Shown: positions 1-62,876 of the stretch, piece after piece
Position numbering within the stretch: position 1 is the first letter of the stretch
Layout: each line of letters starts with the position of its first letter
Sequence record: PQ850605.1
Direction: 5' to 3' (one strand)
Source: Escherichia phage HansTraber_Bas100
DNA length: 64,000 bases
Program-made: the position numbers and the translations under genes
Notes under the pieces: generated by a model
Seen by the model: the letters and a program-made list of their open reading frames with translations, nothing else
Told to the model about the DNA's origin: nothing
Database searches by the model: none

Positions 1-1428
1 ATGTACCAGTTGAATCCTGCTTTAAAAGAAGTCTGGAAGACAAAAGCGCGATACAAAGTAATATACGGCGGTCGTGCATCTTCCAAATCGCACGATGCCG
101 CTGGTTTTGCTATTTATTTGGCGGCAAACTTCAAATTAAAATTCCTTTGCGTTCGACAATTCCAGAACAAGATTTCTGAATCTGTATATACTCTATTAAA
201 AGATAAAATAGAGATTTCTGATTTTAAAGATGAGTTCAATTTATTAAAGAACTCTATCGAGCATAAAAGAACTAAATCTGAATTTCTATTTTACGGTATC
301 GCACGTAACGTTGATGAAATTAAATCAACGGAAGGTGTTGATGTTCTTTGGCTGGAAGAAGCGCACGCACTTACTGAAGAACAGTGGGACATTATTGAGC
401 CGACAATCCGTAAAGAGGGGTCAGAAATATGGATCATCTTTAACCCTGATGAAGAGGCCGATTTCGTCTACCAAAACTTTGTTATGCGACCGCCGAAGAA
501 TGCCATAGTTAAAAAGATAAACTGGCAAGACAACCCATTCTTGTCGCAAACAATGCTGGATGTTATTGCAGGCATGTACGAGCGCGACCCGAAAAAGGCA
601 GAGCACGTTTATGGCGGTGTGCCGAAGACTGGCGGCGATAAATCTGTAATCAACCGTGCATTCGTTAAGGCCGCTCTTAATCTCCACAAACACCCTACGC
701 TGGGCTGGAGTTTGTCAGGGTCTAACCGTATAGGCTTTGACGTAGCGGACGATGGCGACGACCTTAACGCCACTGCATTCGTTACAGGAAACGTATTGCG
801 CGGCATCAAGACGTGGGAAGGTCTGGAAGATGAATTGTTGAAATCGGCAAGCGGAGTTTGGAAAGATGCGCTTACATTTGGCGCTTCTATAACTTATGAC
901 GCCATCGGTGTCGGCGCTTTTGCTGGTTCAAAATTTGATGAACTAAACGAGTATGCAATACATGAAAATCCATCATTTCCAAGAATCGAATTTAATGCGT
1001 TCAACGCGCAAGGGTCTGTTGATGATCCTGATGACGTTTTTCTTGAGCTACCACACGTTGAAATACTCAATAAAGACCATTTCGCGAACATAAAAGCGCA
1101 AAAGTGGACTGAAATTGCAGAGAGATTCAGAAAGACATACGAATATGCAACTGGGCAAGCCGTATATCCGACTGATGAATTGATTTCAATCGACACCGAT
1201 GGTATACCGGAACTTGGGATTCCAGCTTGGACTACTGAAGAGATTGAGACGTTTCTTTTTGAGATGTCAGCGCCGCGCAAAGATACGTCTGTTCTTGGCA
1301 AGTTCAAAGTTGAATCCAAAAAGGATATGGCAAAGCGTGGAGTCAAATCACCTAACAAAGCGGACGCAGCAATCATGGCATTGATGAAACCAATTGTTGC
1401 AGCATCCGGCTTCTTCTCTAACCTTTAA
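1..1428 (+). CDS. terL: terminase large subunit
   Basis: 475-aa ORF starting at window base 1; N-terminal Walker A-like GGRASSKS, Walker B-like VLWLEEAH, C-terminal nuclease-like region. Confidence 0.85.
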   Translation: MYQLNPALKEVWKTKARYKVIYGGRASSKSHDAAGFAIYLAANFKLKFLCVRQFQNKISESVYTLLKDKIEISDFKDEFNLLKNSIEHKRTKSEFLFYGIARNVDEIKSTEGVDVLWLEEAHALTEEQWDIIEPTIRKEGSEIWIIFNPDEEADFVYQNFVMRPPKNAIVKKINWQDNPFLSQTMLDVIAGMYERDPKKAEHVYGGVPKTGGDKSVINRAFVKAALNLHKHPTLGWSLSGSNRIGFDVADDGDDLNATAFVTGNVLRGIKTWEGLEDELLKSASGVWKDALTFGASITYDAIGVGAFAGSKFDELNEYAIHENPSFPRIEFNAFNAQGSVDDPDDVFLELPHVEILNKDHFANIKAQKWTEIAERFRKTYEYATGQAVYPTDELISIDTDGIPELGIPAWTTEEIETFLFEMSAPRKDTSVLGKFKVESKKDMAKRGVKSPNKADAAIMALMKPIVAASGFFSNL

Positions 1429-1431
1429 CAA

Positions 1432-1671
1432 TCAAAGCATTCCGTGCTGAAGGTCAAGCTTTCTTGCGGCAAACGACCTGGCACGGAATCGCTTACCCGC
1501 TCTCACCGCCTGCCGAATCTTCTTTTGCATACACTTACGGTCAAAATCGTTGCGGTCAACGGCTTCGAGTAAATCCCGACGCAAAGCACCTAGTGTCGCC
1601 TTTTCGGATAATTCTACGCCCAGCGCGGCTGCAACGTCTTTCAAAACATCGAGTTCGGTTAACGTTCTCAT
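1432..1671 (-). CDS. hypothetical protein (79 aa, basic C-terminus)
   Basis: ORF with AAGGGG RBS about 8 nt upstream of ATG; ATGA overlap with upstream gene; opposite strand to flanking structural genes. Confidence 0.45.
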   Translation of the reverse strand: MRTLTELDVLKDVAAALGVELSEKATLGALRRDLLEAVDRNDFDRKCMQKKIRQAVRAGKRFRARSFAARKLDLQHGML

Positions 1672-2084
1672 TTGATGATCCCCTTGATGTCTGATTCTGC
1701 CATAAAGATTGGAGTGCCGCCGCCGGGAACAATCGAGCGCGTTACTTTGTCGAACATATCGTTCTCTTCAACTTGAATACGATAAAATTTATTTTTGGAT
1801 GAAGATGGGCACAATCCAATAAATTTACCAATGCCGCGAACGCATTCATCTTCAAAGTATACTGTTTCACCTTGAATGGATTCGATGTTTTCAACCGGAT
1901 ACACCTTGCGACCTAAAAGCCACTCATCCATGGTCGCCTGCAACACGTTTCGCGCATCCAAAATCCAAGGGTCAACTGTGGCACCTTCATATCGCGCAGC
2001 AGTGGCTTTTGCCAGCTCTTCATATTCGCATACGTTTACCACTTCGCCTTGATGAAGGACGACAAATACAATTGTTGTGCTCAT
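1668..2084 (-). CDS. hypothetical protein (138 aa)
   Basis: ORF with strong AAAGGAGA RBS; antisense insertion between terL and portal. Confidence 0.5.
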   Translation of the reverse strand: MSTTIVFVVLHQGEVVNVCEYEELAKATAARYEGATVDPWILDARNVLQATMDEWLLGRKVYPVENIESIQGETVYFEDECVRGIGKFIGLCPSSSKNKFYRIQVEENDMFDKVTRSIVPGGGTPIFMAESDIKGIIK

Positions 2085-2179
2085 TTCAATCTCCTTTCGT
2101 TTGGTTAACTAAAATATAACTCAAAATGATACAAAAGCAAAATATTTTATGAACTATTTATGATTACTATACATATCAT

Positions 2180-2208
2180 TTGCTTACAAACACATGAATA
2201 TTTATAAT
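2180..2208 (+). promoter_or_regulatory. sigma70-like promoter (TTGCTT-17 bp-TATAAT) upstream of portal gene
   Basis: near-consensus -35/-10 hexamers with 17-bp spacer in an AT-rich intergenic region about 40 nt upstream of the portal ATG. Confidence 0.5.
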
Positions 2209-2246
2209 ATAGATTGATTCCCTTTCACTGTCAGGTGGCGTTAACA

Positions 2247-4622
2247 ATGAAAATTCTTGGCATAAAACTCTGGGAGAAGACGCAACCAGAAGCCGAACAA
2301 GCGGAGATGCCGCCGGGCGACCCATTGGCACCGTTTGAACGCCTGGAAAGGCGCGGCAGCGGTCAACGCTGGGATAAGACCGAAAGCAACCGCCCGACCT
2401 TTAAAACCGTTGATGACTTTCCTTTATATGAGCCTGATATCAACGGGGACGGTGTTGCAATCATCAAAGGTCGCTCAGTAGATTCAGCAACCGTATCCAA
2501 AAAAGTTATGGACAATGCTTTGAAGAACATCAGTTCAGAAGGGCAGGTTAATCCATACACAGTACCTATTCAGTTGCAAAACTGGTACTTATCGCAATCA
2601 TTTATCGGATATCAAGCTTGCGCCATCATCGCGCAGCACTGGCTGGTGAACAAGGCTTGTTCCATGGTAGGCCGCGATGCGGTCCGTAAAGGCTGGGAAG
2701 TCAAATCCAGTTCTGAGTCGGAATTGTCAGTACAGGCCAGCGAACGTCTAAAGCAAATTGATAAAGAATTTAATATCAAAGAGCACTTAGTTGAAGCCGA
2801 ACGATTCAAGAATATTTTTGGTATTCGCGTCATCATATTTGACGTGCGCAGCGATGACCCAGAATATTATAGCAAACCTTTTAACATCGATGGTGTGACA
2901 AAAGGGTCTTATAAGGGAATTATTCAGGTTGACCCTTATTGGATGATGCCATTCTTGACGTCTGAAAACACCGCCGACCCTGCATCACAGCACTTCTATG
3001 ATCCAGAATACTGGGTGATCAGCGGCCAGCGTTATCATCGCAGCCACCTAATCATCTTGCGCAACGATGAGCCAGCTGATATTCTTAAGCCGACTTATAT
3101 CTACGGCGGCATTCCTCTGACTCAGCAGATTTATGAACGCATCTATGCCGCTGAACGTACCGCTAACGAAGCGCCATTGCTGGCGATGTCAAAGCGTACA
3201 ACCACGCTTCGGACCGACGTTGACAAGGCGATTGCCAATGAGCGGTCGTTCGCCGAACGTCTGATGATGTGGATTAAGTACCGCGACAACTATGCAGTCA
3301 AAGTGCTTGGTCAGAAAGAAGAGATGGACCAGTTTGACATCAACTTGTCAGACTTCGACAGTATCATCATGAACCAGTACCAGCTGGTGGCCGCAATCGC
3401 AAAAGTTCCGTCGACAAAACTGTTAGGGACATCACCTAAAGGCTTTAACGCCACTGGTGAGTTCGAGATGGTCAGCTATCACGAAGAATTGGAAACTTGT
3501 CAACAGCACGATTTGACGAAGATTCTGGACCGTCACTATAAAATCCTTTTGAAATCTGAAGGTGTTGAAGTCGACGTTAAAGTGGCATGGGAGCCAGTTG
3601 GTTCACTTACTGCTACTCAGCTTGCAGAAATTAACGACAAACGAGCGAATACTGGCAAGACTCTCATTGATGCTGGCGTCATCTCCCCTGATGAAGAGCG
3701 TGACCGCATCAAAGACGACAAAAACAGTGGCTACAACCGTTTGCCAGAAGATACAGCAGAAGAAACCCCAGGGATGTCTCCAGAGAACATGGCGTTGCTT
3801 GGCAAGTCTGCTGGTGAAGTGCTGCAAGGTAAGGCCGATATTGAACAGGCTAAGGCTGATGTTGTCAAGATGGGCGGCCAGTTCTATAGCGAGACTGGTA
3901 TCATGCCGGAAGGTGCCGCGCGTGGTGAGTTGGCAGAAAACCCTGACAGGGCACCAGTTGAGATTAACATGGATGATACCGATGACGAATCAAGCCATCA
4001 CGTCGATGTCCTAACGCAACTGAAAGAAGGTCTGGAGGGTATTGCTGACTATTACCTTAAAGAAGGTCAGGATGTGGATTTTGACCCTCAAAAAGATGCA
4101 AGGTCGGTGCAACCGTCTACGCTTCCAAGCGTAAAAGGAAATGTCGTAAACTTGCGACACAATGTAGGGAAGATGGATGCCGCATCGCTGCCTAAGATGA
4201 AGTTGCACGGGATGATTCTTGGTATTGAGAATCCTCGCAACAGCATTCGCAGGGGCAACAGCCTTGATGGTGAATGGGCAGTTAAGATGCCGCACCATTA
4301 CGGATTTATCAAAGGCACCAAGGGTGCTGATGGTGATGAAGTCGACTGCTTTGTTGGGCCAAATATGAAGTCGCCTAAAGTATTCATCATTAACCAAAAT
4401 GATAATTATTCTGGCGAATTTGATGAACACAAGTGCATGCTTGGATTTGATTCAGCAGAAGAAGCGAAAGAAGCTTATCAAGCATCATTTGGTAACGGTT
4501 GGAACGGATTCGACTCAATTCACGAATTGGATGTAAACTCATTCAAGGAGTGGTTGAAGGGTGATTGCTCTCAAGCATATGGAGCACTCAATAATCCTAC
4601 TAATTCACCGAAGCAAGGTTGA
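2247..4622 (+). CDS. portal protein with extra C-terminal domain (about 170 aa)
   Basis: 791-aa ORF right after terL-side cassette and before MuF-like gene; AGGTGG RBS; ATG at 2247 preferred over track TTG at 2214; unusually long for a portal. Confidence 0.7.
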   Translation: MKILGIKLWEKTQPEAEQAEMPPGDPLAPFERLERRGSGQRWDKTESNRPTFKTVDDFPLYEPDINGDGVAIIKGRSVDSATVSKKVMDNALKNISSEGQVNPYTVPIQLQNWYLSQSFIGYQACAIIAQHWLVNKACSMVGRDAVRKGWEVKSSSESELSVQASERLKQIDKEFNIKEHLVEAERFKNIFGIRVIIFDVRSDDPEYYSKPFNIDGVTKGSYKGIIQVDPYWMMPFLTSENTADPASQHFYDPEYWVISGQRYHRSHLIILRNDEPADILKPTYIYGGIPLTQQIYERIYAAERTANEAPLLAMSKRTTTLRTDVDKAIANERSFAERLMMWIKYRDNYAVKVLGQKEEMDQFDINLSDFDSIIMNQYQLVAAIAKVPSTKLLGTSPKGFNATGEFEMVSYHEELETCQQHDLTKILDRHYKILLKSEGVEVDVKVAWEPVGSLTATQLAEINDKRANTGKTLIDAGVISPDEERDRIKDDKNSGYNRLPEDTAEETPGMSPENMALLGKSAGEVLQGKADIEQAKADVVKMGGQFYSETGIMPEGAARGELAENPDRAPVEINMDDTDDESSHHVDVLTQLKEGLEGIADYYLKEGQDVDFDPQKDARSVQPSTLPSVKGNVVNLRHNVGKMDAASLPKMKLHGMILGIENPRNSIRRGNSLDGEWAVKMPHHYGFIKGTKGADGDEVDCFVGPNMKSPKVFIINQNDNYSGEFDEHKCMLGFDSAEEAKEAYQASFGNGWNGFDSIHELDVNSFKEWLKGDCSQAYGALNNPTNSPKQG

Positions 4623-28558: not shown

Positions 28559-28782
28559 ACGGCTTCAACCTGGACGGGCGGCGCGGAACTTGTATCGATG
28601 TCTGGCAAGTCGAAGTAATACCCCGCCATGCCAATCACGCCAACAATCGCGGCCCGTGCCACCTTGTTGCTAATTGACTCCCCAATAAGCTTTACCAACA
28701 GGGACAAGATTTGAGACGTCAAAGCCTTTTTCAGCCTTTTGTTTTCTTCCAAATCTTTCTGCATAACTACCACCCATGTCAA
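28552..28782 (-). CDS. small hypothetical protein with one hydrophobic segment
   Basis: 76-aa ORF, AAIVGVIGMAGYYF hydrophobic stretch; ATGA overlap with upstream gene. Confidence 0.45.
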   Translation of the reverse strand: MTWVVVMQKDLEENKRLKKALTSQILSLLVKLIGESISNKVARAAIVGVIGMAGYYFDLPDIDTSSAPPVQVEAVK

Positions 28783-29321
28783 CGCACATCCTGTGTCTTA
28801 ACATTACCTGAAGCATCTCTTAATGGCAGTGGATAGTAGGCCATTTGGTAGTCTGATACGCCTTCAACATGATAAAACACGATTACGTCTTTGCTGTTGA
28901 TGAGCATGTTAACGACATCTGATTTATCTTCTGGAGTGAGTATGAGTGCGCCGCCTGTCCTGCTGTCTACTGCAACAGGGTATGTCTTATCGACAAGGCC
29001 GCTGTCCAATGTATTATACCTGACAACGATTTCAGGGGCATCAACTTTTGCAATTGACATTCCGAACACAAACGACACGACTTGGCGACCGCGATCATTC
29101 ATTACGCACATCTTTTCCTTGTCAAACCTTTCCTTTATCACATCGTATTTATTCCAGCAAAATTCGAACGATTGGCCGTTGTTAAAATATCTCGTTAACA
29201 CTTTGGCATTACTATTTGGCGGCGTAAACATACTTTCAGCCGCTGCACTTTTGGTGAAGAACAAAACTGTCAGCATAGCCATGATGATGATCAAAACAAT
29301 CTTTAAGTTTTTCGATTTCAT
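28779..29321 (-). CDS. secreted or membrane-anchored protein (N-terminal signal/TM)
   Basis: AAGGTGA RBS; N-terminus MKSKNLKIVLIIIMAMLTVLFFTKSAAA. Confidence 0.5.
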   Translation of the reverse strand: MKSKNLKIVLIIIMAMLTVLFFTKSAAAESMFTPPNSNAKVLTRYFNNGQSFEFCWNKYDVIKERFDKEKMCVMNDRGRQVVSFVFGMSIAKVDAPEIVVRYNTLDSGLVDKTYPVAVDSRTGGALILTPEDKSDVVNMLINSKDVIVFYHVEGVSDYQMAYYPLPLRDASGNVKTQDVR

Positions 29322-29394
29322 TATAATTCACCTTTTGATTACGAATATTAATAGTATAGGCCGAAGGTTTTGAAAGTAAATAAGGCGAAAGGTA

Positions 29395-29425
29395 AATAAA
29401 AGAAAAGCCGGAGATTTCCGGCTTT
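29395..29425 (-). terminator. intrinsic terminator downstream of ligase gene
   Basis: AAAGCCGGA-gatt-TCCGGCTTT stem followed on the - strand by a T-rich run. Confidence 0.55.
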
Positions 29426-29497
29426 ATGTATACACTGTATATTAAATTCTATAAAACGACGCGATAGATTATCCGCACCAATTACTTATCTAGTGTC

Positions 29498-30475
29498 TTA
29501 AAAATACTCCATATCGGTAATATCACGGAAGCATTTATACAAAGCAGAGCGCGGCACGTCGACGATGCCAAAGTTAAAGAATTTATACGTTAGGTATTTA
29601 TCGCGATAGTTCTCGCGATTCTCCCAAAGCATTTTACGCTCTGCCATAGGCATTGAACCAGCGGAGACGCGGAAAGGAATCATTTCACCTTTCTCATCCA
29701 CATATTTTGGATTGACGACTACGAATGAGCCAAGGTATCCTTTCGCAACTAAACCTTCAGCCTCTTTTGAACGCTTGGTGCGACCCAATTCGTCAATGAA
29801 TGCTTCGTTGTTGTTCTCCATCATCTCAACGAAGTCTATGATCAACCCTTCTTCATCGGTCCACGGCTTGTCCTTCCACACATCACGTGACTTCGGCGTC
29901 GCGCGGCCATGCTTATATTTGCCCGTCCAAGACTTGCCATACAAGCCTTCATAGCCAAGCTGGTCTGCTTCGATTTGCATTGCCGCGTACTGGTCCATAT
30001 TTTCGATGTTGCGATATTCGAGAGCGCGAAGGAATGGACGTCGGCCATGGTCAATGAGATGTTGATTGACCTCAGCAACACGTCGATTGTACTTCTCATA
30101 ACGGGCCGAGAATGGCAAATCAGGTTCGCTAAAGTCATCAAACACCCACCATGTAAAGTTAGTGATTGCATCAGTGTTCATGCATGCAGTATAGGCCTGT
30201 TGCATGACGTTCTTGTCATTTGGATTGCCGTCGATTAGCTCTCCATCAAGTCCGTGAATTAATTCACCCAAGAAGAGGAACTCTTTTTTGATTTGAATGT
30301 TGCGCAGCGCCATGCCGGACGTGCCCATTGGCAAGTTGTCATACGCCATTGCGCGTATGCCATCGACCTTGAATGACAATCCGCAAGGCAGCGGCACGTC
30401 TTCGCCGCGCTCGATTATTTGCTTACGCTGGCAACCCTTCATTGGTTTTAATGCTTTGATTTCTCCTGCCATCAC
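29498..30475 (-). CDS. ATP-dependent DNA ligase
   Basis: motif I KVDGIR (adenylation lysine) near N-terminus; 325 aa. Confidence 0.7.
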   Translation of the reverse strand: MMAGEIKALKPMKGCQRKQIIERGEDVPLPCGLSFKVDGIRAMAYDNLPMGTSGMALRNIQIKKEFLFLGELIHGLDGELIDGNPNDKNVMQQAYTACMNTDAITNFTWWVFDDFSEPDLPFSARYEKYNRRVAEVNQHLIDHGRRPFLRALEYRNIENMDQYAAMQIEADQLGYEGLYGKSWTGKYKHGRATPKSRDVWKDKPWTDEEGLIIDFVEMMENNNEAFIDELGRTKRSKEAEGLVAKGYLGSFVVVNPKYVDEKGEMIPFRVSAGSMPMAERKMLWENRENYRDKYLTYKFFNFGIVDVPRSALYKCFRDITDMEYF

Positions 30476-48242: not shown

Positions 48243-48529
48243 ATATTGTAATTCTTTATGGTGAAAATATCAGCGATGACGACATCGAAGTTGCCGTTGA
48301 TGTTTACGGTATCGATGAGGTGAAACGTGTTGAAGAAATTAGTGGCGCAAATCTCAATGAGATTGTCAAAGAAGCTGGTTGCCCTTCGGAAGAGATTCTG
48401 GTGGTTACTAACGATGACCTGTCTTCTATGGATCATTTGCGCCGCATCTTCACCGATTGCCAATACCTTCATGCTGTTCAATCAGTAAACAAATTGAGAA
48501 AGGCATACGCCAACCAATTTCCTTGCTGA
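48239..48529 (+). CDS. hypothetical protein (96 aa)
   Basis: ORF with GGGGTGAGCGG upstream. Confidence 0.5.
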   Translation: MNIVILYGENISDDDIEVAVDVYGIDEVKRVEEISGANLNEIVKEAGCPSEEILVVTNDDLSSMDHLRRIFTDCQYLHAVQSVNKLRKAYANQFPC

Positions 48530-48665
48530 TAGTTCACCAGTTATATTGCTTTAAATTGAGTTTTACTATATTAATATACAACGCCAGATTTCTGGCGTTT
48601 ATTTACCGCACCCTGAAAGGATATATCCATGCAACAATATAACAAAGCCGTATCAGGAGGATTAA

Positions 48666-50336
48666 ATGTCAATTAATAACGACAATCTTCCAGAGGATAC
48701 AGGTGATGAATTTGGTGCAATCTTTGACGAAATTCAAGATGCAGGCGTTTCGGAAGAAATGCAGGCAGCAGAGCAGCAAGGCACCAGAGCTAAAATCAGC
48801 CTTCAACATAAAGCCGTTGAAAAAGATTCAGAGCGCATGGAATGCTACGGTGAAGAAGACTTGGTTGAAAGAGCACGCTTGCTCGCCTCACTTCAGGTAA
48901 TCAAGTTCCCTCACTACAAGCCGACCAAAGATGACTTCGTTCTACAGGCAGACCGGACGAGTGACATGAACCGTTATGCGGTTTTCGACGCGTTGTTTGA
49001 TAAGGGAAGTGGCGTTGTTCCATTCCCTCACAAAGATACCTTTCGTGGGCGCTTAGTCGACCATCGCGGCGAAACATTCACCGACCGTACTTTGGAAGTC
49101 ACAGAGATAGTTGCCGCTGTCGACGCAGCAGGATTGTCCAACCCAAACTCACGTCAGGTCGCTCAATCCTATAAGGAATGGGCCATGCGTTATCAGCGCG
49201 ACGACCTGATGGACTTCTTCTACAAGAAGCTGCCTGAATGGGACGGTACTGCGCGCATCGAGAAATACCTTATCGAGCTATTCCGACCGTTCGATACAGA
49301 GTTAAACCGACAAATCGGTGTGTATTTTTGGCTATCGCTCTACAACCGCCTGACCAACCCTGGCTGTCAAGCGCCAATCTCCATTGCGCTCATCGGCGGC
49401 CAGAACGCAGGGAAGAGTTATTTTAGCAAGCTGCTTTGCGAAGCTATTATGAACGACCGCCACGCAACACCGATTCCGTTGAACTTAGCCGCGCAGAACT
49501 TCAACCCGTTCTTGCGAGCTATTACGGGTCGCTCAATTATCGCGAACGTCGGCGAGATGACAGGCTTTAAAAAGGCCGACATCGAAAACATGAAAGCATT
49601 CCTGACTAAGACGGAAGATGACCTGGACTTCAAATTTGAAGATACGCAGGTTAAACCACGCCAGTGGATTGCTATCATGGACGGCAACGAATACGCAGGC
49701 ATGCAGCGTGATGACACGGGCAACCGTCGTGTGTATCCTATCTTTGTTGGCCAACTCGCTGACAAGGACGGGCAACCGAACTGGTCGAAAGACTTCCAAG
49801 CTGACCTTTCCACTTTGAAAGAAGATGTTTGGCAATTGATGGCTGAGTGCGCTGCTTGGATGGAGAAGCACGGCGAAGCAGGCTACAACGCGTTTGTTGG
49901 TGAAACATCTCGCATGCTTACTGAGTTCAGTAAAAACGAAATGGAACGTGCGCGCGGCGTTATCCGTGATGAGATGGTTGACAATGACCTTGTTGAAGTC
50001 GTCATCACCGCGCCTTATGACCGACATCACAGCGGACGCTGGCACATCACCAGTGGTGCTATTGCTATGGGATTCAGAGCGAAGTGTGGCAAGTCGCCTT
50101 TCTCTCGTACCCTTGCGCCGCACATGTCGAAGCTTGGTTTTGAGCCTGCAACCTATCGCAACCAGCGCGGTTACTTTACGCCGCTGATTAAGAATGAAGC
50201 AGGGGAATACATTTCTGACTTGATGACCATCTTAGCGTATCTTATCCGTGATGAGTCTGACCCTGAAGATATTGAATTCTTGAAGAAGGTTATCGAGCGT
50301 AAACGTTCTTTGGGAAGAGATAAGGATGAATTCTGA
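48666..50336 (+). CDS. SF3-type helicase / primase C-terminal domain protein
   Basis: Walker A IGGQNAGKSYF; 556 aa; follows primase-like gene. Confidence 0.6.
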   Translation: MSINNDNLPEDTGDEFGAIFDEIQDAGVSEEMQAAEQQGTRAKISLQHKAVEKDSERMECYGEEDLVERARLLASLQVIKFPHYKPTKDDFVLQADRTSDMNRYAVFDALFDKGSGVVPFPHKDTFRGRLVDHRGETFTDRTLEVTEIVAAVDAAGLSNPNSRQVAQSYKEWAMRYQRDDLMDFFYKKLPEWDGTARIEKYLIELFRPFDTELNRQIGVYFWLSLYNRLTNPGCQAPISIALIGGQNAGKSYFSKLLCEAIMNDRHATPIPLNLAAQNFNPFLRAITGRSIIANVGEMTGFKKADIENMKAFLTKTEDDLDFKFEDTQVKPRQWIAIMDGNEYAGMQRDDTGNRRVYPIFVGQLADKDGQPNWSKDFQADLSTLKEDVWQLMAECAAWMEKHGEAGYNAFVGETSRMLTEFSKNEMERARGVIRDEMVDNDLVEVVITAPYDRHHSGRWHITSGAIAMGFRAKCGKSPFSRTLAPHMSKLGFEPATYRNQRGYFTPLIKNEAGEYISDLMTILAYLIRDESDPEDIEFLKKVIERKRSLGRDKDEF

Positions 50337-50983
50337 TGAATAAAGCAATCAACATCGCTAAATTCTTTCAACATCTTGGTGAACTGAACAAAGAAAGTGA
50401 CGTTCACGGCGAAGAAATGAACCGGATGATCTCAACCGTGTTGCGTGGCTTTGGTTATGATAAGGACTCAATCACTTGCAAGCGTACAAAGCTTGTTGAT
50501 GAGTCTTATCTTTACTACGTAGAGCTGCGCATCGGGAAAGATGTGATGATCATTGACCCTAAACTGGAAGGGGCGCACTGTTTTGGCGCTCACCCTCGTG
50601 CGAGTGAATTCAAGGGTCGCGGTCGCAACCGAATCCAGAAGCTTGATGACGCAGGCGACTTGAACATTGCAATGTTCCTCAAAGAGTTCCTTGCTCTTCC
50701 AAAGGTTGCATCATCCACGGGTCGCGATGACCCTTGCAAGATTGGCTTCAGAACTAAAGATTTGCGCAATGCGCTACGCAAGAAGGGATTTGTGCCTTCT
50801 TATGACAACGTCGCCGCGCTGATGGCTTCAATGGAGGAAGCTGAAGCGATGGACAAGGTGCGCGGCTATTTCCTGAATACAGGCTTCACCATGTATGAAT
50901 GGCACACGAAGGGATTGACTGTCGCCGACTTCATCTATTCATTAGAGCAGAAGTATGTACGCAATATGCAGGCCACAGGATAA
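50336..50983 (+). CDS. hypothetical protein (215 aa)
   Basis: ATGA overlap with helicase stop. Confidence 0.55.
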   Translation: MNKAINIAKFFQHLGELNKESDVHGEEMNRMISTVLRGFGYDKDSITCKRTKLVDESYLYYVELRIGKDVMIIDPKLEGAHCFGAHPRASEFKGRGRNRIQKLDDAGDLNIAMFLKEFLALPKVASSTGRDDPCKIGFRTKDLRNALRKKGFVPSYDNVAALMASMEEAEAMDKVRGYFLNTGFTMYEWHTKGLTVADFIYSLEQKYVRNMQATG

Positions 50984-51022
50984 TTATCATCAAAATATTT
51001 GCTTTTCTGACGAGGTGATATT

Positions 51023-51247
51023 ATGATTAATTTAGACAGGATTGAGTTAGCACTTAGTACCTTAATCAAATATTACCAGTTTGCGTTTAAGGCTAGTTTG
51101 TTTGGCTTGTTCAATCCTCATCAAGCAGCAAAGGCGAGAAGCAATGCCAACCGCCTGCGCTGTACTGGTATAGTTATCCATGACCGGATATTGACAGAGG
51201 GTAGATTCAGCCATGAATACACAGGGGAGAATAACAAATCAACGTAG
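51023..51247 (+). CDS. hypothetical protein (74 aa)
   Basis: GAGGTG RBS. Confidence 0.4.
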   Translation: MINLDRIELALSTLIKYYQFAFKASLFGLFNPHQAAKARSNANRLRCTGIVIHDRILTEGRFSHEYTGENNKST

Positions 51248-51422
51248 GGCTTTACAAGTCCTCATCCACTACCTGTCACGCCTTTATCCAACGGCGCACG
51301 AGCAGAATCCAGCAACTGGTCATCTGTTTAAGCGCCGTAACCTTTCGCTAAAAACATTCACTTTAATCCAATATGACCGCTACCTGGACGGGCGCTACTG
51401 CGGCCCGAAGGATTCTCTATGA
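51213..51422 (+). CDS. hypothetical protein (69 aa), overlapping
   Basis: ORF overlapping upstream gene by 35 nt; weak support. Confidence 0.3.
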   Translation: MNTQGRITNQRRALQVLIHYLSRLYPTAHEQNPATGHLFKRRNLSLKTFTLIQYDRYLDGRYCGPKDSL

Positions 51423-51697
51423 TTAATACATACAAAGTATTCTTTGTCAAGTGCACATCATCTATTGATGACCAATTTACTGCTGGCAAGAATTATCCCG
51501 TGATTTCTGAGTCAAGGCTAGATATAATCTTGAATGATCATGAAATCTATGAGCCGATGCCAGCGACTGCGTTTGATGTTATCGGTCACGTTCGGATTAA
51601 GACTAATGTTGAGACGATGCATGACCCGTTGTTCAAGAAACAAATCAAGAATGCCATGCAAGACTTTTGCGCGGCCATGTTTAAATATTATAAGTGA
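51419..51697 (+). CDS. hypothetical protein (92 aa)
   Basis: ATGA overlap start. Confidence 0.45.
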   Translation: MINTYKVFFVKCTSSIDDQFTAGKNYPVISESRLDIILNDHEIYEPMPATAFDVIGHVRIKTNVETMHDPLFKKQIKNAMQDFCAAMFKYYK

Positions 51698-51704
51698 GTT
51701 GAAG

Positions 51705-51926
51705 ATGAGCAAGAAAACCCTTAAGGCTGGCGACCGTATCCGTTGGGTGTCAGGACAGCACATGCGTGCGGGCACCATCCTTGAGCTGGATGAATACCTT
51801 ACCGATTCTCGCGGTCGCAATCATTACCGTGTAAGAATCGATACAGTAAAAGAAGATGACAAGTCAATGGTTGGTGAAGTGGTCATCGTTACTCCACGTC
51901 AAATTAAGGCGGCTTGTGAAGCATGA
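51705..51926 (+). CDS. hypothetical protein (73 aa)
   Basis: internal ATG of track ORF 51534-51926. Confidence 0.45.
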   Translation: MSKKTLKAGDRIRWVSGQHMRAGTILELDEYLTDSRGRNHYRVRIDTVKEDDKSMVGEVVIVTPRQIKAACEA

Positions 51927-52080
51927 ATAAATATCAATTTAGCGATAATAAAATCAGTAAGGCAGATGCAATCAAGCAGCTTCGCCGCGTACTTGAAGCC
52001 AGCGGCCATACGAAAGAGCGCGCACGCGTCCTGGCCAAAGAACATTATAAACGTTTTGTGTCACAAATCAGAGGTTAATT

Positions 52081-52575
52081 ATGATCATCCATCGCCCTTT
52101 AATGTTAAACAAAGAAGAAGCTAAAGAAATTTTACACGCATTGAGACGTGCAGAAGCAGATGTTAACCTTCGTGTAAGGGTGAGAGACTTTATCATGAAG
52201 GAGTTTGAAAGTGATGACGTTGACTATGCCATTGATGAATTACTGAAGCGCAACGTCAAAGGCGCAACAAGACCCATTTGCCATCAATCACGTTGCGTAC
52301 AAGTTCCTATCAAGACTTATGTTGATAAAAAGCCGCGCCTTAAGCCTGTTCCGGCTGATAAAATAGAAGTCGGTGATGTTATCGTCTGCGTCTATTACGG
52401 CAGTCAGATTTTCAATGCTGTTGTAGTAAGGCGATACAGCATAAACGGTTGCCAATACATGGAAGTGACAAACGCAAAGAAAGAACCTGGCAGCTTGAAC
52501 GTGGCTTACGCATTAAGGGAATTCAGCAGTCCTTCTTGCACTCTTTATAAGGTACTCGACCATGGCTCATGTTAA
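52081..52575 (+). CDS. hypothetical protein (164 aa)
   Basis: GAGG RBS. Confidence 0.5.
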   Translation: MIIHRPLMLNKEEAKEILHALRRAEADVNLRVRVRDFIMKEFESDDVDYAIDELLKRNVKGATRPICHQSRCVQVPIKTYVDKKPRLKPVPADKIEVGDVIVCVYYGSQIFNAVVVRRYSINGCQYMEVTNAKKEPGSLNVAYALREFSSPSCTLYKVLDHGSC

Positions 52576-52909
52576 AGACGAAGTGTTGTTTGGCGCAGAG
52601 ATTAAGAAACGTGTCAGAGAAATGGCAGGAGAAGAAAGAGTGAAGCCGCTGCGAAAAGGTTTTGATCACATCAATGGTGTATCCGGCACGAAGGAGATGG
52701 GCGTGTTGGTAAAAGACATTCGCATTGGCGATGTCATGGTCATCGACCGACAAGCGCGCGTCGTTATCCAGGTACAGACGAACGATGATGAAGGTTGTGT
52801 CCTATTGAAGCTGAAGAAGCTTTCATCAAGCCCAGCGAAGGCCGTTATCAAGAAGGTGTGGCCCGAAGGGTTACGCAAACTCATCCGTCGACCCGTGGAG
52901 AATGTATAA
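52562..52909 (+). CDS. hypothetical protein (115 aa)
   Basis: overlapping start; operon context. Confidence 0.5.
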   Translation: MAHVKDEVLFGAEIKKRVREMAGEERVKPLRKGFDHINGVSGTKEMGVLVKDIRIGDVMVIDRQARVVIQVQTNDDEGCVLLKLKKLSSSPAKAVIKKVWPEGLRKLIRRPVENV

Positions 52910-53145
52910 TGGAAGATTATATCAACGCTATGTATATGGCATTCTATGTCGTGCAACTTCCGAATGGCGCGGTATTCTATGGCGAGTATACCTTTGACGT
53001 TCAATATGACGTTTCAGAGCGTACAGTGTTAACAAGGGAGTTGATTGCTGACCTTAAGGACGACATCAAACGCGTCGCGCGGCAGCAGTTCAATTTGGAT
53101 GACACAGTCATCGTTCGAATTACCGGAATAACAGAGGTGCAGTGA
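52909..53145 (+). CDS. hypothetical protein (78 aa)
   Basis: ATG 52909 with GGAG RBS preferred over track 52795. Confidence 0.5.
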   Translation: MEDYINAMYMAFYVVQLPNGAVFYGEYTFDVQYDVSERTVLTRELIADLKDDIKRVARQQFNLDDTVIVRITGITEVQ

Positions 53146-58842: not shown

Positions 58843-59175
58843 TAAGCGTATCATGGCTGCAGGCCGCGCCGTTGCTGGATTCCTATTTTCAAAAGTGGTA
58901 CACCCTTACGTCATGATACGTCATGGTTTTCTATCCGTAAGAGTGTACAGCCCTTGCCGCGCCTGGCTTGTACATTAATCTTACGGATGATACGGATAAA
59001 ACTGAGCATCGTTATATATAGAATTCGAAAAATTAATTAACTCCATTTTAAAAACATTTATATTAATTTTTTTCATATCCTCATACTTATGTTAATTTAT
59101 ATATTTAACGTATCATCCGTAAGATATAAGTAAAAACAAAGACTTGCGGCAATACGGATGATACGTCATGATACG
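58843..59175. repeat. iteron-like inverted repeats flanking an AT-rich core (element R2, homologous to R1)
   Basis: ATCTTACGGATGATACGGAT (about 58978-58997) and reverse-complement ACGTATCATCCGTAAGAT (about 59108-59125), outer copies, core with TATATATAGAATTC. Confidence 0.65.
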
Positions 59176-59403
59176 CTTCAACCAGCCAGCAGCGGCTAAG
59201 TCATTGATTTGCATAACAAGCGGCGAAAGGGATGGATTTCTTTTATACGTATCAAACAGTACACCACGCACCACGGTCCGCTATTCATTCAGCACTATGA
59301 TTTATGTACTTTTACAGCCAATCTGAACATCAATCTGCACTTGAATATAATGTTCATTCATTGTATAATTCACACTATTAATTTGCACTATGGGATTTGC
59401 ACT

Positions 59404-59877
59404 ATGAGTCAAGATTATGTAGCAATGCCTGAAGACTTTGAAGACCCGCGATTTGCAGAGCATAATCAGGCATTATTCGATGAGTTCATTGACCTTGTTA
59501 TTCAGGGCCATGACATGCGCGCAGCTTTTGCACTAGTATTTGGCATGGAGGTTGCGACCGATAACTACACTGGCCAGCGAATCCTCTGCACGCAACGCAA
59601 TCCGTACTACAAGATGCGCTACAAAAAGCGTATGGAAGAGATGCCATTGAAGGAATTGTGGAGCGTAAAGAGTTCCATCCACAATTTAGTGAAGCTTGTG
59701 CGTGATCCAGAAGTCGCGGCGTCAGCCAAGCTTAATGCCATTCGTGAACTGAATATCATCTACGGCATCACGATGATTGATGAAAATGGCAATAGTAAAA
59801 TGGGCCGTTCCATGGACGATTTCTACAAGGATTTTGGAGAGGCAGCCAAAGAGGGTGAGCAATTCTCCCGCCACTAG
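59404..59877 (+). CDS. terminase small subunit-like DNA-binding protein (tentative)
   Basis: FDEFIDLVIQGHDMRAAFALVFG resembles HTH region of small terminases; weak RBS; ATG overlaps a copy of the 11-mer. Confidence 0.4.
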   Translation: MSQDYVAMPEDFEDPRFAEHNQALFDEFIDLVIQGHDMRAAFALVFGMEVATDNYTGQRILCTQRNPYYKMRYKKRMEEMPLKELWSVKSSIHNLVKLVRDPEVAASAKLNAIRELNIIYGITMIDENGNSKMGRSMDDFYKDFGEAAKEGEQFSRH

Positions 59878-59894
59878 CCAATTTGCACTATAAA

Positions 59895-59932
59895 ATGGCC
59901 CTAGAACACATTTTCTCCACTTCTAGGGCCAT
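59895..59932 (+). promoter_or_regulatory. perfect 12-bp-stem hairpin after terS-like gene
   Basis: ATGGCCCTAGAA - 14-nt loop - TTCTAGGGCCAT; no U-tract. Confidence 0.45.
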
Positions 59933-60305
59933 CGGTAATACGACGGGGAAGGTTACAACCATAAACGCGTTAGAAAGTGTATTATTATAAGTCATCTTTT
60001 AGTCACTTTACGTAACAATTTACGACCTTCCGCCGTCCAGTCGAACGACTCCACCAGCAGATTTGCACTATAACCTAAGACGATGCGTCCCTTCTCGTTA
60101 TCGACCCGCCAACAAGTCTCGAATAGCATTCGATTTGCACTATTAACTATCGCCGCGACGCGCGTTGGGTAAGCGCAATTTGCACTATGGTCATAAAGGG
60201 ATAAGGTGCGACCGCTTCCGATGGACAACGTAGCGATAAGAATAAGCGTATTCATAAGCCACCAATTTGCACTATGAAAAGCGACCCCGAAGGGCCGCCA
60301 TTCGA

Positions 60306-60932
60306 TTAGATAATCTGGAATGTGTAGGACTTGTTGCCGAACTCGAAGTTCAAGCGTCCAGCTTCCTTAAGCTTCATGCGGAAGCGAATGTGCTTGCTAT
60401 CCGGTAATCCCAGCGCGGCGAACGCTACGCGGACCGATTTGAACTCGCCTACACCCTCGACCATGACACCGTTACGGGTGAGACGCTTTTGCGCCACTTC
60501 CTTATTATCCCAGCTTTTTGCAATACCTTCGCTATTCGAACGGCGATGGGAAGGAGTTCCATTTTGCACTACGCAATTTGCACTATCGTTTAAACCGCTC
60601 TTAACGAAGGCTTCATACTCTTCGTCGGTCATCGCGTCGAGTTCTTCCTGGGTCGGCTCGGCCTTTTTAACGACCGCACGCGCCTTATGCGTTTTTACAT
60701 CGCTGGGCACTTCCTCGCGCGACTTCGCGTCTGGGATGGGCGACTCGTTGGACGGCTCATCGAGCGCGTTTAAGGACTCGATTAACGCTATTACGCGAGT
60801 CTCGGCGGTCCGGCGGTCCGCAAATTTTTTGATCGGCTTCGAACCGGAATTTGCATTGTAAAATGCAACGAGGTCGGCGGTCTTAGTTGCGATAACGTCG
60901 CCGCTAGTCGAGAAACGATTTAAGCTAACCAT
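60306..60932 (-). CDS. hypothetical protein (208 aa)
   Basis: AGGAG RBS; coding region contains tandem copies of the 11-mer (reverse strand) encoding SANCVVQN. Confidence 0.55.
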   Translation of the reverse strand: MVSLNRFSTSGDVIATKTADLVAFYNANSGSKPIKKFADRRTAETRVIALIESLNALDEPSNESPIPDAKSREEVPSDVKTHKARAVVKKAEPTQEELDAMTDEEYEAFVKSGLNDSANCVVQNGTPSHRRSNSEGIAKSWDNKEVAQKRLTRNGVMVEGVGEFKSVRVAFAALGLPDSKHIRFRMKLKEAGRLNFEFGNKSYTFQII

Positions 60933-61012
60933 AATGAACTCCTATTTGTTAGGGCGCTAGGCGCGAAAGAATTTTATTAAAGCGCCGCGCACGACGCTCT
61001 AAAAATCCTCTC

Positions 61013-61297
61013 TTACGCTTCGACGAGGGAGAAGGTCTCAAATTCTTCTTCGCCCATAACGAGTAAGATGTTACCGATTTCGACCGCTTCGAAGAAGTAT
61101 CCGTTAACGTTTACTTCGAAGGCTTCGCGGTCCGATTCCGGTAACGCCGCGTAAAGTTTAAAAGCCTCGGCGACCGTTACCCCACCCGCCTCGATAGTTT
61201 GGTCTACGTTCGCGGCGTAGACTTCGGATAAAATTTGTTTTACGCCGTAGTTCTCGACGATAGCGTTACGAATAGAAGAAACGTTAAGAATAGCCAT
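61013..61297 (-). CDS. small acidic protein, paralog A (94 aa)
   Basis: AGGAG RBS 6 nt upstream; promoter and leader homologous to those of paralog C in inverted orientation. Confidence 0.55.
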   Translation of the reverse strand: MAILNVSSIRNAIVENYGVKQILSEVYAANVDQTIEAGGVTVAEAFKLYAALPESDREAFEVNVNGYFFEAVEIGNILLVMGEEEFETFSLVEA

Positions 61298-61321
61298 TTT
61301 AAACTCCTAGTTGGGAGAGGC

Positions 61322-61342
61322 GTTAACGACCTATTCGTTAAC
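61322..61342 (-). promoter_or_regulatory. 5' leader hairpin of paralog A
   Basis: GTTAACGA-loop-TCGTTAAC; same position as hairpin in paralog C leader with two compensatory base-pair changes. Confidence 0.5.
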
Positions 61343-61365
61343 TCATCCCGTCCCGATATGAGTAC

Positions 61366-61393
61366 ATTATAATATAGTGTAGAAAAAAGTAAA
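61366..61393 (-). promoter_or_regulatory. promoter of paralog A (TTTACT-16 bp-TATAAT)
   Basis: hexamers on - strand; spacer contains CTACACT. Confidence 0.45.
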
Positions 61394-61437
61394 GCACTTT
61401 TTCGATAAAAATGAGATAAATTATTTTATCTTTTTTC

Positions 61438-61465
61438 TTTACTTCTTCGTACACTCGCGTATACT
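61438..61465 (+). promoter_or_regulatory. promoter of paralog B (TTTACT-16 bp-TATACT)
   Basis: conserved spacer TCTTCGTACACT shared with paralog C promoter. Confidence 0.45.
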
Positions 61466-61521
61466 TGTTTATATCGAGACGGGCGATGGCCCTTCCTTCT
61501 ACTAGCATCGGGAGTTTTATT

Positions 61522-61824
61522 ATGACTACTTTAATCTCTTCTATCCTTACTTACGACGAAGACCGTTTAACCGTTCGTTCTCTTATCGCCGCCGTTAACG
61601 CGGAACTAGAATCCACCATCATTAAGGTCCGCGCGGTCGCTTTCGTCGGGCTTTCCTTCGACGATATGAAATACGCCGAACGTAGCGCCATCCGCTTCGC
61701 GAAGACCGACGACGAAGCCGTTACCCTTATCGAGACGGTTACGCCTCACGGCGAAGCGTTAATTATCGTCGAGTATATCGACGTAGAAGGCGATAAAGCT
61801 TATAAACATTTTATCGCAAAATAA
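61522..61824 (+). CDS. small acidic protein, divergent paralog B (100 aa)
   Basis: ATG 61522 with GGGAG RBS; track start 61465 overlaps the -10 and is rejected. Confidence 0.5.
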   Translation: MTTLISSILTYDEDRLTVRSLIAAVNAELESTIIKVRAVAFVGLSFDDMKYAERSAIRFAKTDDEAVTLIETVTPHGEALIIVEYIDVEGDKAYKHFIAK

Positions 61825-61834
61825 CGAAAAGTGC

Positions 61835-61863
61835 TTTACTTCTTCGTACACTAAGACTATAAT
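61835..61863 (+). promoter_or_regulatory. promoter of paralog C (TTTACT-17 bp-TATAAT)
   Basis: hexamers plus conserved spacer TCTTCGTACACT. Confidence 0.5.
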
Positions 61864-61885
61864 GTTTTATATCGAGAGGGGATGA

Positions 61886-61906
61886 GGTAGCGAATAGGTC
61901 GCTACC
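61886..61906 (+). promoter_or_regulatory. 5' leader hairpin of paralog C
   Basis: GGTAGCGA-atagg-TCGCTACC perfect 8-bp stem about 25 nt upstream of ATG. Confidence 0.5.
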
Positions 61907-61930
61907 CGCCCGACCAACTAGGAGATTATT

Positions 61931-62221
61931 ATGATTACTTTAGCCGCTATCCGTTCCGCTCGCGTCGAGACTTCCGAAAACTCTAACGTATTTGGCGAGA
62001 CTTTAGAGAGCGTTTATCTCTCTAACGTCGACGCGACTATCGAGTCTATTTATGAGCCGATCAACTTCCTCGACCTTTACAAGTATCGCGACGAGGACAT
62101 CGTATCGTCCCGCGTAACGATCAACGGCTTCGTTTATACGATTACCGAAATCGGCGGCGAATATATCGCGGTCCCGCAACTCGGCGGCGAAGTAACTTAT
62201 TTTAAAATCGTCTCCTTATAA
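61931..62221 (+). CDS. small acidic protein, paralog C (96 aa)
   Basis: AGGAG RBS; shares IR.A.VE, VY..NVD.TIE and NG(F/Y)..EIG motifs with paralog A. Confidence 0.55.
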   Translation: MITLAAIRSARVETSENSNVFGETLESVYLSNVDATIESIYEPINFLDLYKYRDEDIVSSRVTINGFVYTITEIGGEYIAVPQLGGEVTYFKIVSL

Positions 62222-62241
62222 TACCCTTCCGTTACTAATAG

Positions 62242-62266
62242 GCCGCGCTTAGTCGCGGCTTTTCTT
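62242..62266 (+). terminator. intrinsic terminator after paralog C
   Basis: GCCGCG-cttagt-CGCGGC stem followed by TTTTCTT. Confidence 0.5.
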
Positions 62267-62385
62267 CGTCCCTATCTCGTTGCGCTCCTACGCGAAAACT
62301 CCTTTATCCTTCCCTTCGTCGTCGCATAATCTTCGTCGGTATGCGCCTTAGTTCGCATAACAGGTATTACGTTAAATGGAGAACA

Positions 62386-62459
62386 TCGCGTAAGTCCTTG
62401 TTTTATATAGACACCTATATCGGACCGTTAGGGCGGGTCGCGTAAGTCGTTGTTTTATA
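62386..62459 (+). repeat. two direct copies of a 22-bp repeat, 52-bp period
   Basis: TCGCGTAAGTCCTTGTTTTATA at 62386 and TCGCGTAAGTCGTTGTTTTATA at 62438. Confidence 0.6.
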
Positions 62460-62690
62460 AAGGCGCAAAACTTTCCCTTCGTTCCGAACTAAAACGAGAA
62501 ATATGCGGACCCTTCGCTCGAAAATAGTACGCATGCGAAATTACCGACATCTAGAATAATCCCCATCGATATTATCCTACGCGCAACCATTCGCTTTCGA
62601 ATTGTAACGCTGGAAACTGTAACGGCGATTGATTATTGCGTTCGTGTGGTTTTTAGGGCATGGGTCTTTTGGTGCGTTTTGCTACTTGAT

Positions 62691-62804
62691 GGAATTTGCA
62701 GTACACTAATCAAAATACGACACATTTGGTCCACTAACTTTTCAAAGAAAAAGTCCTAGACAGTACCGTACTATTTTGTATCCACAGGAAATTTGCAGTA
62801 CACT
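62691..62804 (+). repeat. two copies of GGAA(A)TTTGCAGTACACT
   Basis: copies at about 62691 and 62787; shares ATTTGCA and CACT with the 11-mer and GTACACT with island promoter spacers. Confidence 0.55.
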
Positions 62805-62876
62805 CCTGCGCGCGGCAGGCAAAATAAAGGGCCGCACTAAGCGACCCACGATTCACGGTTAAATCAACAACACCCA

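Follow-up and report, generated by a model that had tools for sequence, protein, structure and literature searches.

A stretch of ~2 kb that is strongly depleted in the base-pair step CA:TG lies at the right end of the direct terminal repeat (DTR) of Escherichia phage HansTraber_Bas100 (PQ850605.1), a Wifcevirus, that is, a PB1-like Escherichia coli myovirus with a genome of ~68 kb, of which a stretch of 64,000 nucleotides (the window) was analyzed. This island is robust, conserved, and under selection, and it is a new result beyond what had been observed in an earlier sequence-only reading of the window, which had drawn attention to a cassette of three small acidic genes (A, B, and C) in the same DNA. 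We see an even chance that island and cassette together represent an accessory early-gene module placed in the last 2 kb of the DTR, in a zone kept free of CA:TG targets.

The CA:TG-depleted island

The cassette region is matched at 92–97% identity by 28 phage records, and lies in the right half of a ~3.6-kb DTR, downstream of the small terminase gene. The DTR was placed with the aid of the related phage Mansfield; other relatives that recur below include phage WFC, Pantoea phage Kyle, and a metagenomic Logan contig (L103). The features that frame the island are as follows:

59045..62669, no strand: DTR, placed by homology, the Mansfield DTR (1..3673, i.e., 3673 bp as predicted by PhageTerm) being mapped by BLASTN
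59404..59877, + strand: small terminase gene, 157 amino acids (aa), phrog_4783 match; the Mansfield annotation cites an HHpred small-terminase match
60600..62600, no strand: CA:TG-depleted island, with TG at 0.30, CA at 0.36, CG at 2.10, and TA at 1.22 of expectation
62272..62600, no strand: non-coding tail of the island, with two 25-nt direct repeats; a 69-aa gene is found here in some relatives
62601..62750, + strand: TG-rich zone that contains the reported right DTR ends; a comparable zone is present in Kyle and L103

In the remainder of the window, TG, CA, CG, and TA stand at 1.18, 1.17, 1.10, and 0.67 of expectation, respectively. The edges of the island are sharp: in 300-bp intervals the TG/CA value is 0.19–0.35 inside it vs. 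1.19 ± 0.14 elsewhere. The left edge falls inside the gene for a 208-aa protein, beside the last copies of an array of the motif ATTTGCACTAT, and the right edge falls ~70 bp before the DTR end, with CTG sites resuming there (62607-62622). CA and TG are lost equally on both strands, including the sense strand of genes in either orientation, and the loss extends to codon positions 1-2 and 2-3, codon junctions, and non-coding stretches. All eight triplet classes that contain CA or TG are depleted, CAG/CTG the most (4 observed vs. 67 expected) and ATG/CAT the least. CTAG, TCGA, CGCG, and CGAG are enriched 3–10 fold in the island, and TTAA is also enriched. Two further spots of low CA/TG in the window (6501-6800 and 29301-29600) are ordinary AT-rich intergenic regions. 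The direct repeats of the non-coding tail (TCGCGTAAGTC.TTGTTTTATA.AG) occupy 62386-62410 and 62438-62462, 52 bp apart.

Several simple causes of such a composition can be ruled out. Codon or amino-acid bias alone does not account for it, given that codon junctions and non-coding DNA are equally depleted, nor does general restriction-site avoidance, as TCGA, CGCG, CTAG, and TTAA are enriched and CA/TG occurs in only about half of the possible sites. Ongoing hypermutation is excluded by the number of CA/TG-destroying mutations (25 observed vs. ~24 expected), and start-codon avoidance by the triplet ranking, in which CTG is the most depleted and ATG the least. Biased T:G repair was excluded by reasoning, in that it would deplete TA, which is instead enriched. 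Literature searches, limited in coverage, found no description of a CA/TG-poor phage region.

Islands of ~1.5–2.0 kb are also present in Kylevirus, Myosmarvirus, and L103. They were located in Pantoea phage PA1 (contig L004, 3250-5100), in L103 (5400-7250), in Serratia phage SMP (contig L006, 16900-18750) as well as two other Myosmarvirus contigs, and in Kyle, where the island ends at position 3405 of the 3603-bp DTR. Wherever the DTR ends are known, the island lies 70–200 bp from the right end. The gene order is the same in all of these phages and contigs: small terminase gene, small open reading frame(s) (ORFs), a gene of the 208-aa family, and then small, mostly acidic genes. In a scan of viral contigs the island was confined to phages of Enterobacterales, and ~70 other loci of the 208-aa family, including those of Pbunavirus and metagenomic relatives, have no island. 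The purge is most complete in L103, in which 1146 bp (5950-7095) hold only six CA/TG, namely three ATG starts, the CA of the promoter element TACACT, and a TGCA within the promoter that follows. In this contig the spacer that separates the divergent promoters and is not transcribed (5846-5968) holds eight CA/TG in ~120 bp. Kyle and PA1 show no such contrast between transcribed DNA and spacer.

The upkeep of the island was assessed from isolated substitutions between diverged genomes (56–86% identity), which were compared with a neutral model. Substitutions that change the CA/TG count were observed less often than expected in Myosmarvirus (19 vs. 48), Kylevirus (24 vs. 52), L103 compared with contig L105 (15 vs. 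39), and Wifcevirus (20 vs. 36), i.e., they are 2–3 times rarer than under neutrality; the flank control gave 119 observed vs. 130 expected. On these substitution counts, selection maintains the purge in four related lineages that infect Enterobacterales. The pattern looks like purifying selection, weaker in Wifcevirus, and unlike either hypermutation or a fading foreign signature.

The ends of the repeat themselves are only partly conserved. Exact repeat copies stand at both ends of the WFC record (3784 bp) and of the Kyle record (3603 bp). The left DTR end of WFC coincides with that of Mansfield, and the WFC right end lies ~81 bp further on, near window position 62750. Between Wifcevirus and Kyle the left end is alike (ATTTTAAAAA... 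and ACTTAAAAAA...); right-end sequences differ between genera, and the right-hand cut may perhaps be made without a specific sequence.

Possible causes of the purge

We tentatively favor, at somewhat less than an even chance, the interpretation that the CA:TG-free 2-kb stretch is a terminal, cis-acting "no-target" zone, protected from an activity dependent on the CA:TG step. Because the loss is symmetric between the strands and CA:TG is a single base-pair step, a property of the duplex is suspected. Candidate activities would include the headful nuclease, in which case a terminase of headful type could yield an exact genome end, a host or phage nuclease that acts on the first-entering DNA, or a primase; in the case of a nuclease specific for the CA:TG step, the terminal stretch would have to stay free of targets. 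In a packaging version of this proposal, an uncuttable stretch of ~2 kb (~2.7% of the packaged length) would focus the headful-triggered cut on the first permissive sequence. In an infection version, the early genes, if the island end enters first, would have to survive until their products act. The packaging version draws on a comparison with Pbunavirus. The TerL of the window (Pfam Terminase_3 match, E = 3e-37) is related to the TerL of headful phages, being 64% identical to that of the Pbunavirus JG024; packaging in the Pbunaviruses JG024 and Banzai is reported as headful and circularly permuted. Genera that bear the island have fixed terminal repeats, whereas Pbunavirus has no island, which suggests a link between the island and the mode of packaging.

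A number of points weigh against a no-target zone, or against the early module of which it would form part. We know of no nuclease with specificity for the CA:TG step. A headful cut made too early would probably be survivable, and a near-absolute purge is hard to square with that. Outside the island the genome has a normal CA/TG content, and a nuclease model would therefore have to invoke DNA entry in steps or a brief period of action. Among Wifcevirus minority alleles, those that create CA/TG are only mildly rare (97 vs. 120 expected), although they are more often singletons (58% vs. 41%). The spacer of L103, with eight CA/TG kept in ~120 bp, hints at an RNA-level or transcription-linked cause. 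Finally, the label "early" derives from position, promoter type, and analogy with the Pbunavirus 14-1.

The L103 spacer is best accommodated if the purge serves RNA rather than DNA, a possibility that we nevertheless consider unlikely. The earliest mRNAs would then escape a host or phage endoribonuclease by lacking UG and CA, much as MazF spares mRNAs that lack ACA, or the purge would ensure that only true start codons remain. The L103 promoter spacer favors such a cause, in that 1.1 kb of transcribed sequence has TG nowhere but in the three ATG starts while the spacer retains its CA/TG, and the island coincides with promoter-driven units. The strand symmetry and the triplet pattern weigh against it: UG and CA are equally depleted in the sense sequence whichever strand encodes the gene, and it is the poor start codon CTG, not ATG, that is most depleted. 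The non-coding tail past the terminator is depleted as well, transcribed DNA and spacer are alike in Kyle and PA1, and an RNase that by itself would cleave at UG and CA yet leave UA and CG intact is not known to us.

A second alternative, which we regard as quite unlikely, involves the Chi sites (GCTGGTGG) beside the island:

60051..60058, - strand: single Chi site of the window, oriented for RecBCD arriving from the left DTR end
Chi clusters of relatives: PA1 (L004 5322-6894), Kyle (L106/L030), SMP (L006 15616-16794), L045 2107-2447, L033 15839-16936, and L103 4138-5375

Each cluster comprises 4–9 sites within 0.3–1.7 kb, all in one orientation, and sits between the small terminase gene and the island; Wifcevirus retains one site. 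The orientation of the clusters fits RecBCD entry at the left (terminase-side) DTR end. The Chi cluster would switch RecBCD, and the island would become the RecA-coated strand that pairs with the other DTR copy, thereby circularizing or concatenating the genome, with the island composition serving that pairing step. A stretch without CA/TG excludes Chi and Chi-like sequences in either orientation. The restriction of the island to Enterobacterales phages matches the host range of Chi, which PMC13181404 describes as specific to enteric bacteria. Against this, Wifcevirus has kept its island with a single Chi site, and a Chi cluster may merely protect the free end. Why RecA pairing or RecBCD would require CA:TG to be wholly absent is not apparent to us, and the preference reported for RecA, for GT-rich DNA, argues the opposite way.

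The prominence of CAG/CTG among the lost triplets (4 vs. 67 expected) raises the possibility of a zone without primer starts, as CTG is where the host DnaG begins its primers. If TG is missing from both strands, the last 2 kb (about one Okazaki fragment) would offer no start for an Okazaki primer, and priming would be forced into the TG-rich end zone, or a long single-stranded tail would be left for annealing. The reappearance of CTG at the island edge (62607-62622) and the constant island length (~1.5–2 kb) would accord with this. We nevertheless hold it to be improbable: all eight CA/TG triplet classes are depleted, beyond CTG alone; phages with DTRs solve end replication via concatemers; and the Pbunaviruses have no island, although the DnaG of Pseudomonas probably shares this preference.

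The island might instead be a window left unmodified in virion DNA that is otherwise modified at CA or TG, an early module without sites being readable at once by the host RNA polymerase. Modification would explain a broad restriction resistance, and a cluster of sugar- and nucleotide-metabolism genes adjoins ThyX in Mansfield. Wifceviruses resist almost all restriction systems tested, without a known protection mechanism, and are blocked by cryptic prophages of K-12 (10.1101/2024.09.12.612763). The window holds 18 EcoRI, 5 EcoRV, and 4 EcoKI sites; resistance extends to EcoRI and EcoRV, although CA/TG is absent from the sites of both enzymes. The Mansfield annotation includes no recognizable DNA-modification enzyme, and other early genes just beyond the island are of normal composition. 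We regard the proposal as quite improbable.

Separately from the island, the Mansfield region 48355-53083 carries genes annotated as glyoxalase-family, short-chain dehydrogenase, HAD phosphatase, ThyX, and UDP-galactopyranose mutase, amid replication genes; given the restriction resistance of Wifceviruses, this run is a candidate DNA- or nucleotide-modification pathway.

Least probable of all is a cassette inherited from a CA/TG-poor donor and without present function: the island edge inside the 208-aa gene in Wifcevirus and PA1 resembles a recombination joint, SMP has a second, island-borne copy of the 208-family gene, and CA/TG-creating alleles are nearly as common as expected in Wifcevirus, but the signature has survived in lineages with island proteins of only 25–48% identity and in divergent alleles, CA/TG-changing substitutions are 2–3 times rarer than neutral in every lineage, and the overall CA/TG depletion that would mark a donor is seen at none of the 79 loci that came out of the scan of viral contigs.

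The gene cassette and its promoter–leader units

The three acidic genes and the 208-aa gene have the coordinates that had been assigned from the sequence alone. They and their expression signals are arranged as follows (pI, isoelectric point):

61013..61297, - strand: gene A, 94 aa, pI 4.05, paralogue of C (ORF list, BLASTP, profile search)
61522..61824, + strand: gene B, 100 aa, pI 4.79, separate orphan family (ORF list, BLASTP, profile comparison)
61931..62221, + strand: gene C, 96 aa, pI 4.23, predicted alpha/beta fold without solved relative (ORF list, structure model)
60306..60932, - strand: 208-aa gene, phrog_4730 family, with its 5' half within the island and its 3' half outside
59992..60255, - strand: basic 87-aa ORF, last gene of the leftward unit, with homologues at the same position in PA1 and L103
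61298..61393, - strand: P_A unit, with -35 TTTACT (61393-61388), -10 TATAAT (61371-61366), leader, and AGGAG
61438..61521, + strand: P_B unit, with -35 TTTACT, -10 TATACT (61460-61465), and a short leader, the hairpin of which has 4 bp only
61835..61930, + strand: P_C unit, with -35 TTTACT, -10 TATAAT (61858-61863), leader, and AGGAG
61322..61342, - strand: A-unit hairpin, GTTAACGA-ATAGG-TCGTTAAC, 8-bp stem
61886..61906, + strand: C-unit hairpin, GGTAGCGA-ATAGG-TCGCTACC, 8-bp stem
62240..62271, + strand: intrinsic terminator of the rightward unit; terminators are annotated at the same place in Mansfield and WFH

The proteins had been described as three acidic paralogues. All three are indeed acidic, and the relationship holds for A and C (BLASTP E = 1e-5, 30% identity; joint profile), but not for B, which gives no BLASTP alignment and an hhalign probability of 0.15%. 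A profile of A and C, searched against 1.84 billion proteins, retrieved both families and little else, including one further homologue; homologues of B are 125-aa proteins in contigs L103 and L105. None of the three matches a Pfam or PHROGs family, a search of 5.8 billion proteins returned Wifcevirus copies only, with no relatives beyond this phage group, and profile searches of the PDB with the cassette proteins gave no match. On these searches, we infer that A, B, and C are lineage-restricted orphans. A structure model of C from an alignment of nine family members (pLDDT 88.8, pTM 0.78; an earlier model from a two-sequence alignment was unusable, at pLDDT 44) predicts a mixed alpha/beta domain. 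This model has no match among solved structures, and Foldseek against viral models returned only its own orthologue and two uncharacterized phage proteins.

Ocr, ArdA, Gam, and gp5.9 are acidic DNA-mimic anti-defense proteins, and the cassette proteins share with them small size and strong acidity, a locus at which the earliest expression is expected, and a restriction-resistant phage group. No relationship to Ocr- or ArdA-like mimics was found by sequence or fold, and the model of C differs from them in its mixed alpha/beta architecture, the predicted secondary structure of which suggests no elongated DNA-like surface. The idea of DNA mimicry is neither supported nor excluded. An anti-defense role in a wider sense would be reasonable, because Wifceviruses resist almost all tested restriction systems without a known protection mechanism; the three proteins probably act on the host or its defenses in the first minute of infection.

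The make-up of these proteins also bears the mark of the island. His, Gln, Cys, Trp, and internal Met are nearly absent from A, B, and C, a consequence of the CA/TG purge of their DNA, and their acidity and odd amino-acid composition may in part be a by-product of the CA/TG ban. If the no-target zone is real, the small genes have been forced into encoding proteins without these residues.

The family of the 208-aa protein (phrog_4730) occurs in Pbunavirus, Kylevirus, Myosmarvirus, and Xanthomonas phages, adjoining the small terminase gene; the protein itself, queried against protein databases, found near-identical sequences only. Serratia phage SMP carries two copies of the family: a 167-aa form inside the island (L006 18078-18581), and the C-terminal part of a 344-aa protein (L003 4605-5639) outside it, with normal composition. 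The 87-aa ORF has an N-terminus that reads as signal-peptide-like.

The proposal of individually promoted accessory genes beside a packaging gene agrees with the presence of three predicted sigma-70-type promoter copies near the small terminase gene. Their core, TTTACTTCTTCGTACACT, occurs three times in 64 kb vs. 0.07 expected by chance, and every copy stands 16–17 nt upstream of TATAAT or TATACT, which is followed by the conserved start region TATATCGAGA. The whole forms a portable unit of ~100 bp that comprises TTTACT, a conserved spacer, TATAAT, TATATCGAGA, a hairpin in the 5' untranslated region (5' UTR), and AGGAG; promoter and start region are shared by PA1 and L103. The units upstream of A and C are near-identical when aligned over their whole length, and for these two the suggested inverted duplication of expression units is borne out. 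The arrangement would yield two divergent transcription units, P_A leading leftward into A, the 208-aa gene, and the 87-aa gene, and P_B and P_C rightward into B and C up to the terminator. Location in the DTR and sigma-70-type promoters fit early expression. The Pbunavirus 14-1 has sigma-70-like promoters, and in E. coli, too, its P001 is strong (PMC10914365). The portable promoter–leader units of the window are compact, strong-looking E. coli expression parts. For the infection cycle, one study, as cited in 10.1101/2024.09.12.612763, gives 3–5 minutes from adsorption to progeny release.

Relatives differ in the genes behind these units, as emerged from the presence/absence comparison that had been proposed, in which gene A is present, absent, or swapped for an unrelated gene. 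Across the 17 Wifcevirus copies compared, P_A drives gene A in most; in ECML-117 and RCIP0319 gene A is missing and P_A directly drives the 208-aa gene, and Eco4M-7 is also without gene A. WFC, WFH, and Bas98 have in its place an unrelated 104-aa acidic gene that resembles a 93-aa protein of PA1, and their C allele is only 65% identical to that of the window. F13 has an extra orphan unit with no gene behind it, and in some relatives (Eco4M-7, F13) C is followed by the 69-aa gene, annotated as a transcriptional regulator. The small genes would thus be gained, lost, and swapped by recombination between the repeated units.

The leader hairpin had been thought to be under selection on account of compensatory differences between its two copies, and the A and C stems do differ at two pairs, each changed on both sides. 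Selection on the stem at the RNA level is borne out by compensatory and G-U-preserving changes among relatives. In Bas99 a U-A pair has become U-G, and in ECML-117, RCIP0319, and F13 an A-U pair has become G-U; these variants keep the RNA pair, yet would break a DNA palindrome. EC150 shows a third compensatory swap (U-A to A-U), with a one-base bulge. Across six distinct hairpin sequences 95.8% of cells pair, and the suggested covariation check, run across Wifcevirus relatives, gave 0.275 vs. 0.135 in shuffles, a value reached by 10 of 500, with few independent events. Folding z-scores of the A and C hairpins are only -1.9 and -2.1. To be set against a selected stem are the pair-breaking variants of Bas98 (C-A) and kaset (A.A) and the small base of these statistics, six distinct sequences. 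PA1 units have no stem at the hairpin position, the L103 and gene B units have a 4-bp stem only, and a scan of viral contigs for the hairpin pattern returned known Wifceviruses only. In our reading the hairpin is a genuine RNA stem confined to Wifcevirus, for which the statistical support is modest. A transcription terminator is ruled out by the position in the 5' UTR, between the -10 element and the ribosome-binding site, and by the lack of a U-run after the stem, which is followed by CCGCCCGACC or GCCTCTCCC. The stem would most likely tune mRNA stability or translation.

Known systems and neighboring elements

In the PeSL cassettes of T4-type phages, a repeated early promoter and stem-loop flank variable small ORFs (PMC2839356, PMC4122927). 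The cassette described here is similar in having repeated, conserved sigma-70-type early promoters (predicted in this case) with an adjacent stem-loop, and in that the repeats flank small, non-essential, fast-changing ORFs of a hyperplastic region, the turnover of which is explained by recombination. It differs in that the PeSL stem-loop is a terminator, whereas the stem here lies in the 5' UTR, downstream of the promoter and without a U-run. Furthermore, PeSL cassettes belong to T4-like phages and have no reported dinucleotide avoidance, whereas the present cassette belongs to a PB1-like phage and lies in a terminal repeat. The most fitting description, by analogy, is that of a hyperplastic early module of PeSL-like type within a terminal repeat.

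Pre-early or host-takeover modules in long terminal repeats are known from the first-step-transfer DNA of T5 and the terminal redundancy of SPO1. They resemble the cassette in their small genes, mostly without assigned function, their host-type promoters, and their location in a direct terminal repeat of kilobase scale; the T5 record annotates the terminal repeat with "enters host cell first". No homologues of A1, A2, or dmp were seen, and the composition also differs: in T5 the left repeat (L102 1-10219, compared with 10220-30000) has CG at 1.31 vs. 0.79 and GC at 1.52 vs. 1.08, with AG/CT and GA/TC at ~0.8 vs. 1.0–1.15 outside, but no CA/TG purge. The T5 signature is thus mild and of another kind, and in the window only the right-hand 2 kb of the repeat is affected. 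A composition unlike that of the remaining genome may nevertheless be a common trait of early regions in terminal repeats.

The avoidance of short sequences is itself familiar in phage genomes, from which restriction sites and short palindromes are lost by selection, presumably as an escape from DNA-cutting activities. The known cases concern sites of 4–6 bp and are genome-wide, whereas here the loss concerns one base-pair step in a 2-kb stretch with sharp edges, removes five amino acids, and is accompanied by a 3–10 fold enrichment of TCGA, CGCG, and CTAG. A ban on one step at the kilobase scale, shared by several phage genera, amounts to a selective signal of great strength and specificity. 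It points to an unrecognized activity in Enterobacterales phages that reads CA:TG on DNA, or UG/CA on RNA, either as infection begins or as packaging ends. The outcome of recoding the island may show how relatives of headful phages acquired fixed terminal repeats, and may explain the resistance of Wifceviruses to almost all tested restriction systems. Other phages could also be searched by composition for elements of this kind, to which the island offers a simple key.

One further element adjoins the island:

59367..60586, + strand: (A)ATTTGCACTAT array, ~10 copies on a single strand, around and after the small terminase gene; also in PA1, Kyle, and L103

A variant of this motif, AATTTGCAGTACACT, occurs at 62693 and 62790, just beyond the right DTR end. 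The array is a candidate site array for packaging recognition or for another DNA-binding protein. Elsewhere in the window, the region 6560-6900 holds iteron-like repeats (GATACGGAT / ATCCGTATC), several of them as tandem pairs, which flank a very AT-rich core in an origin-like arrangement; a related sequence, TACGGATGATACG, occurs at 58982 and 59153, just left of and just inside the left DTR end.

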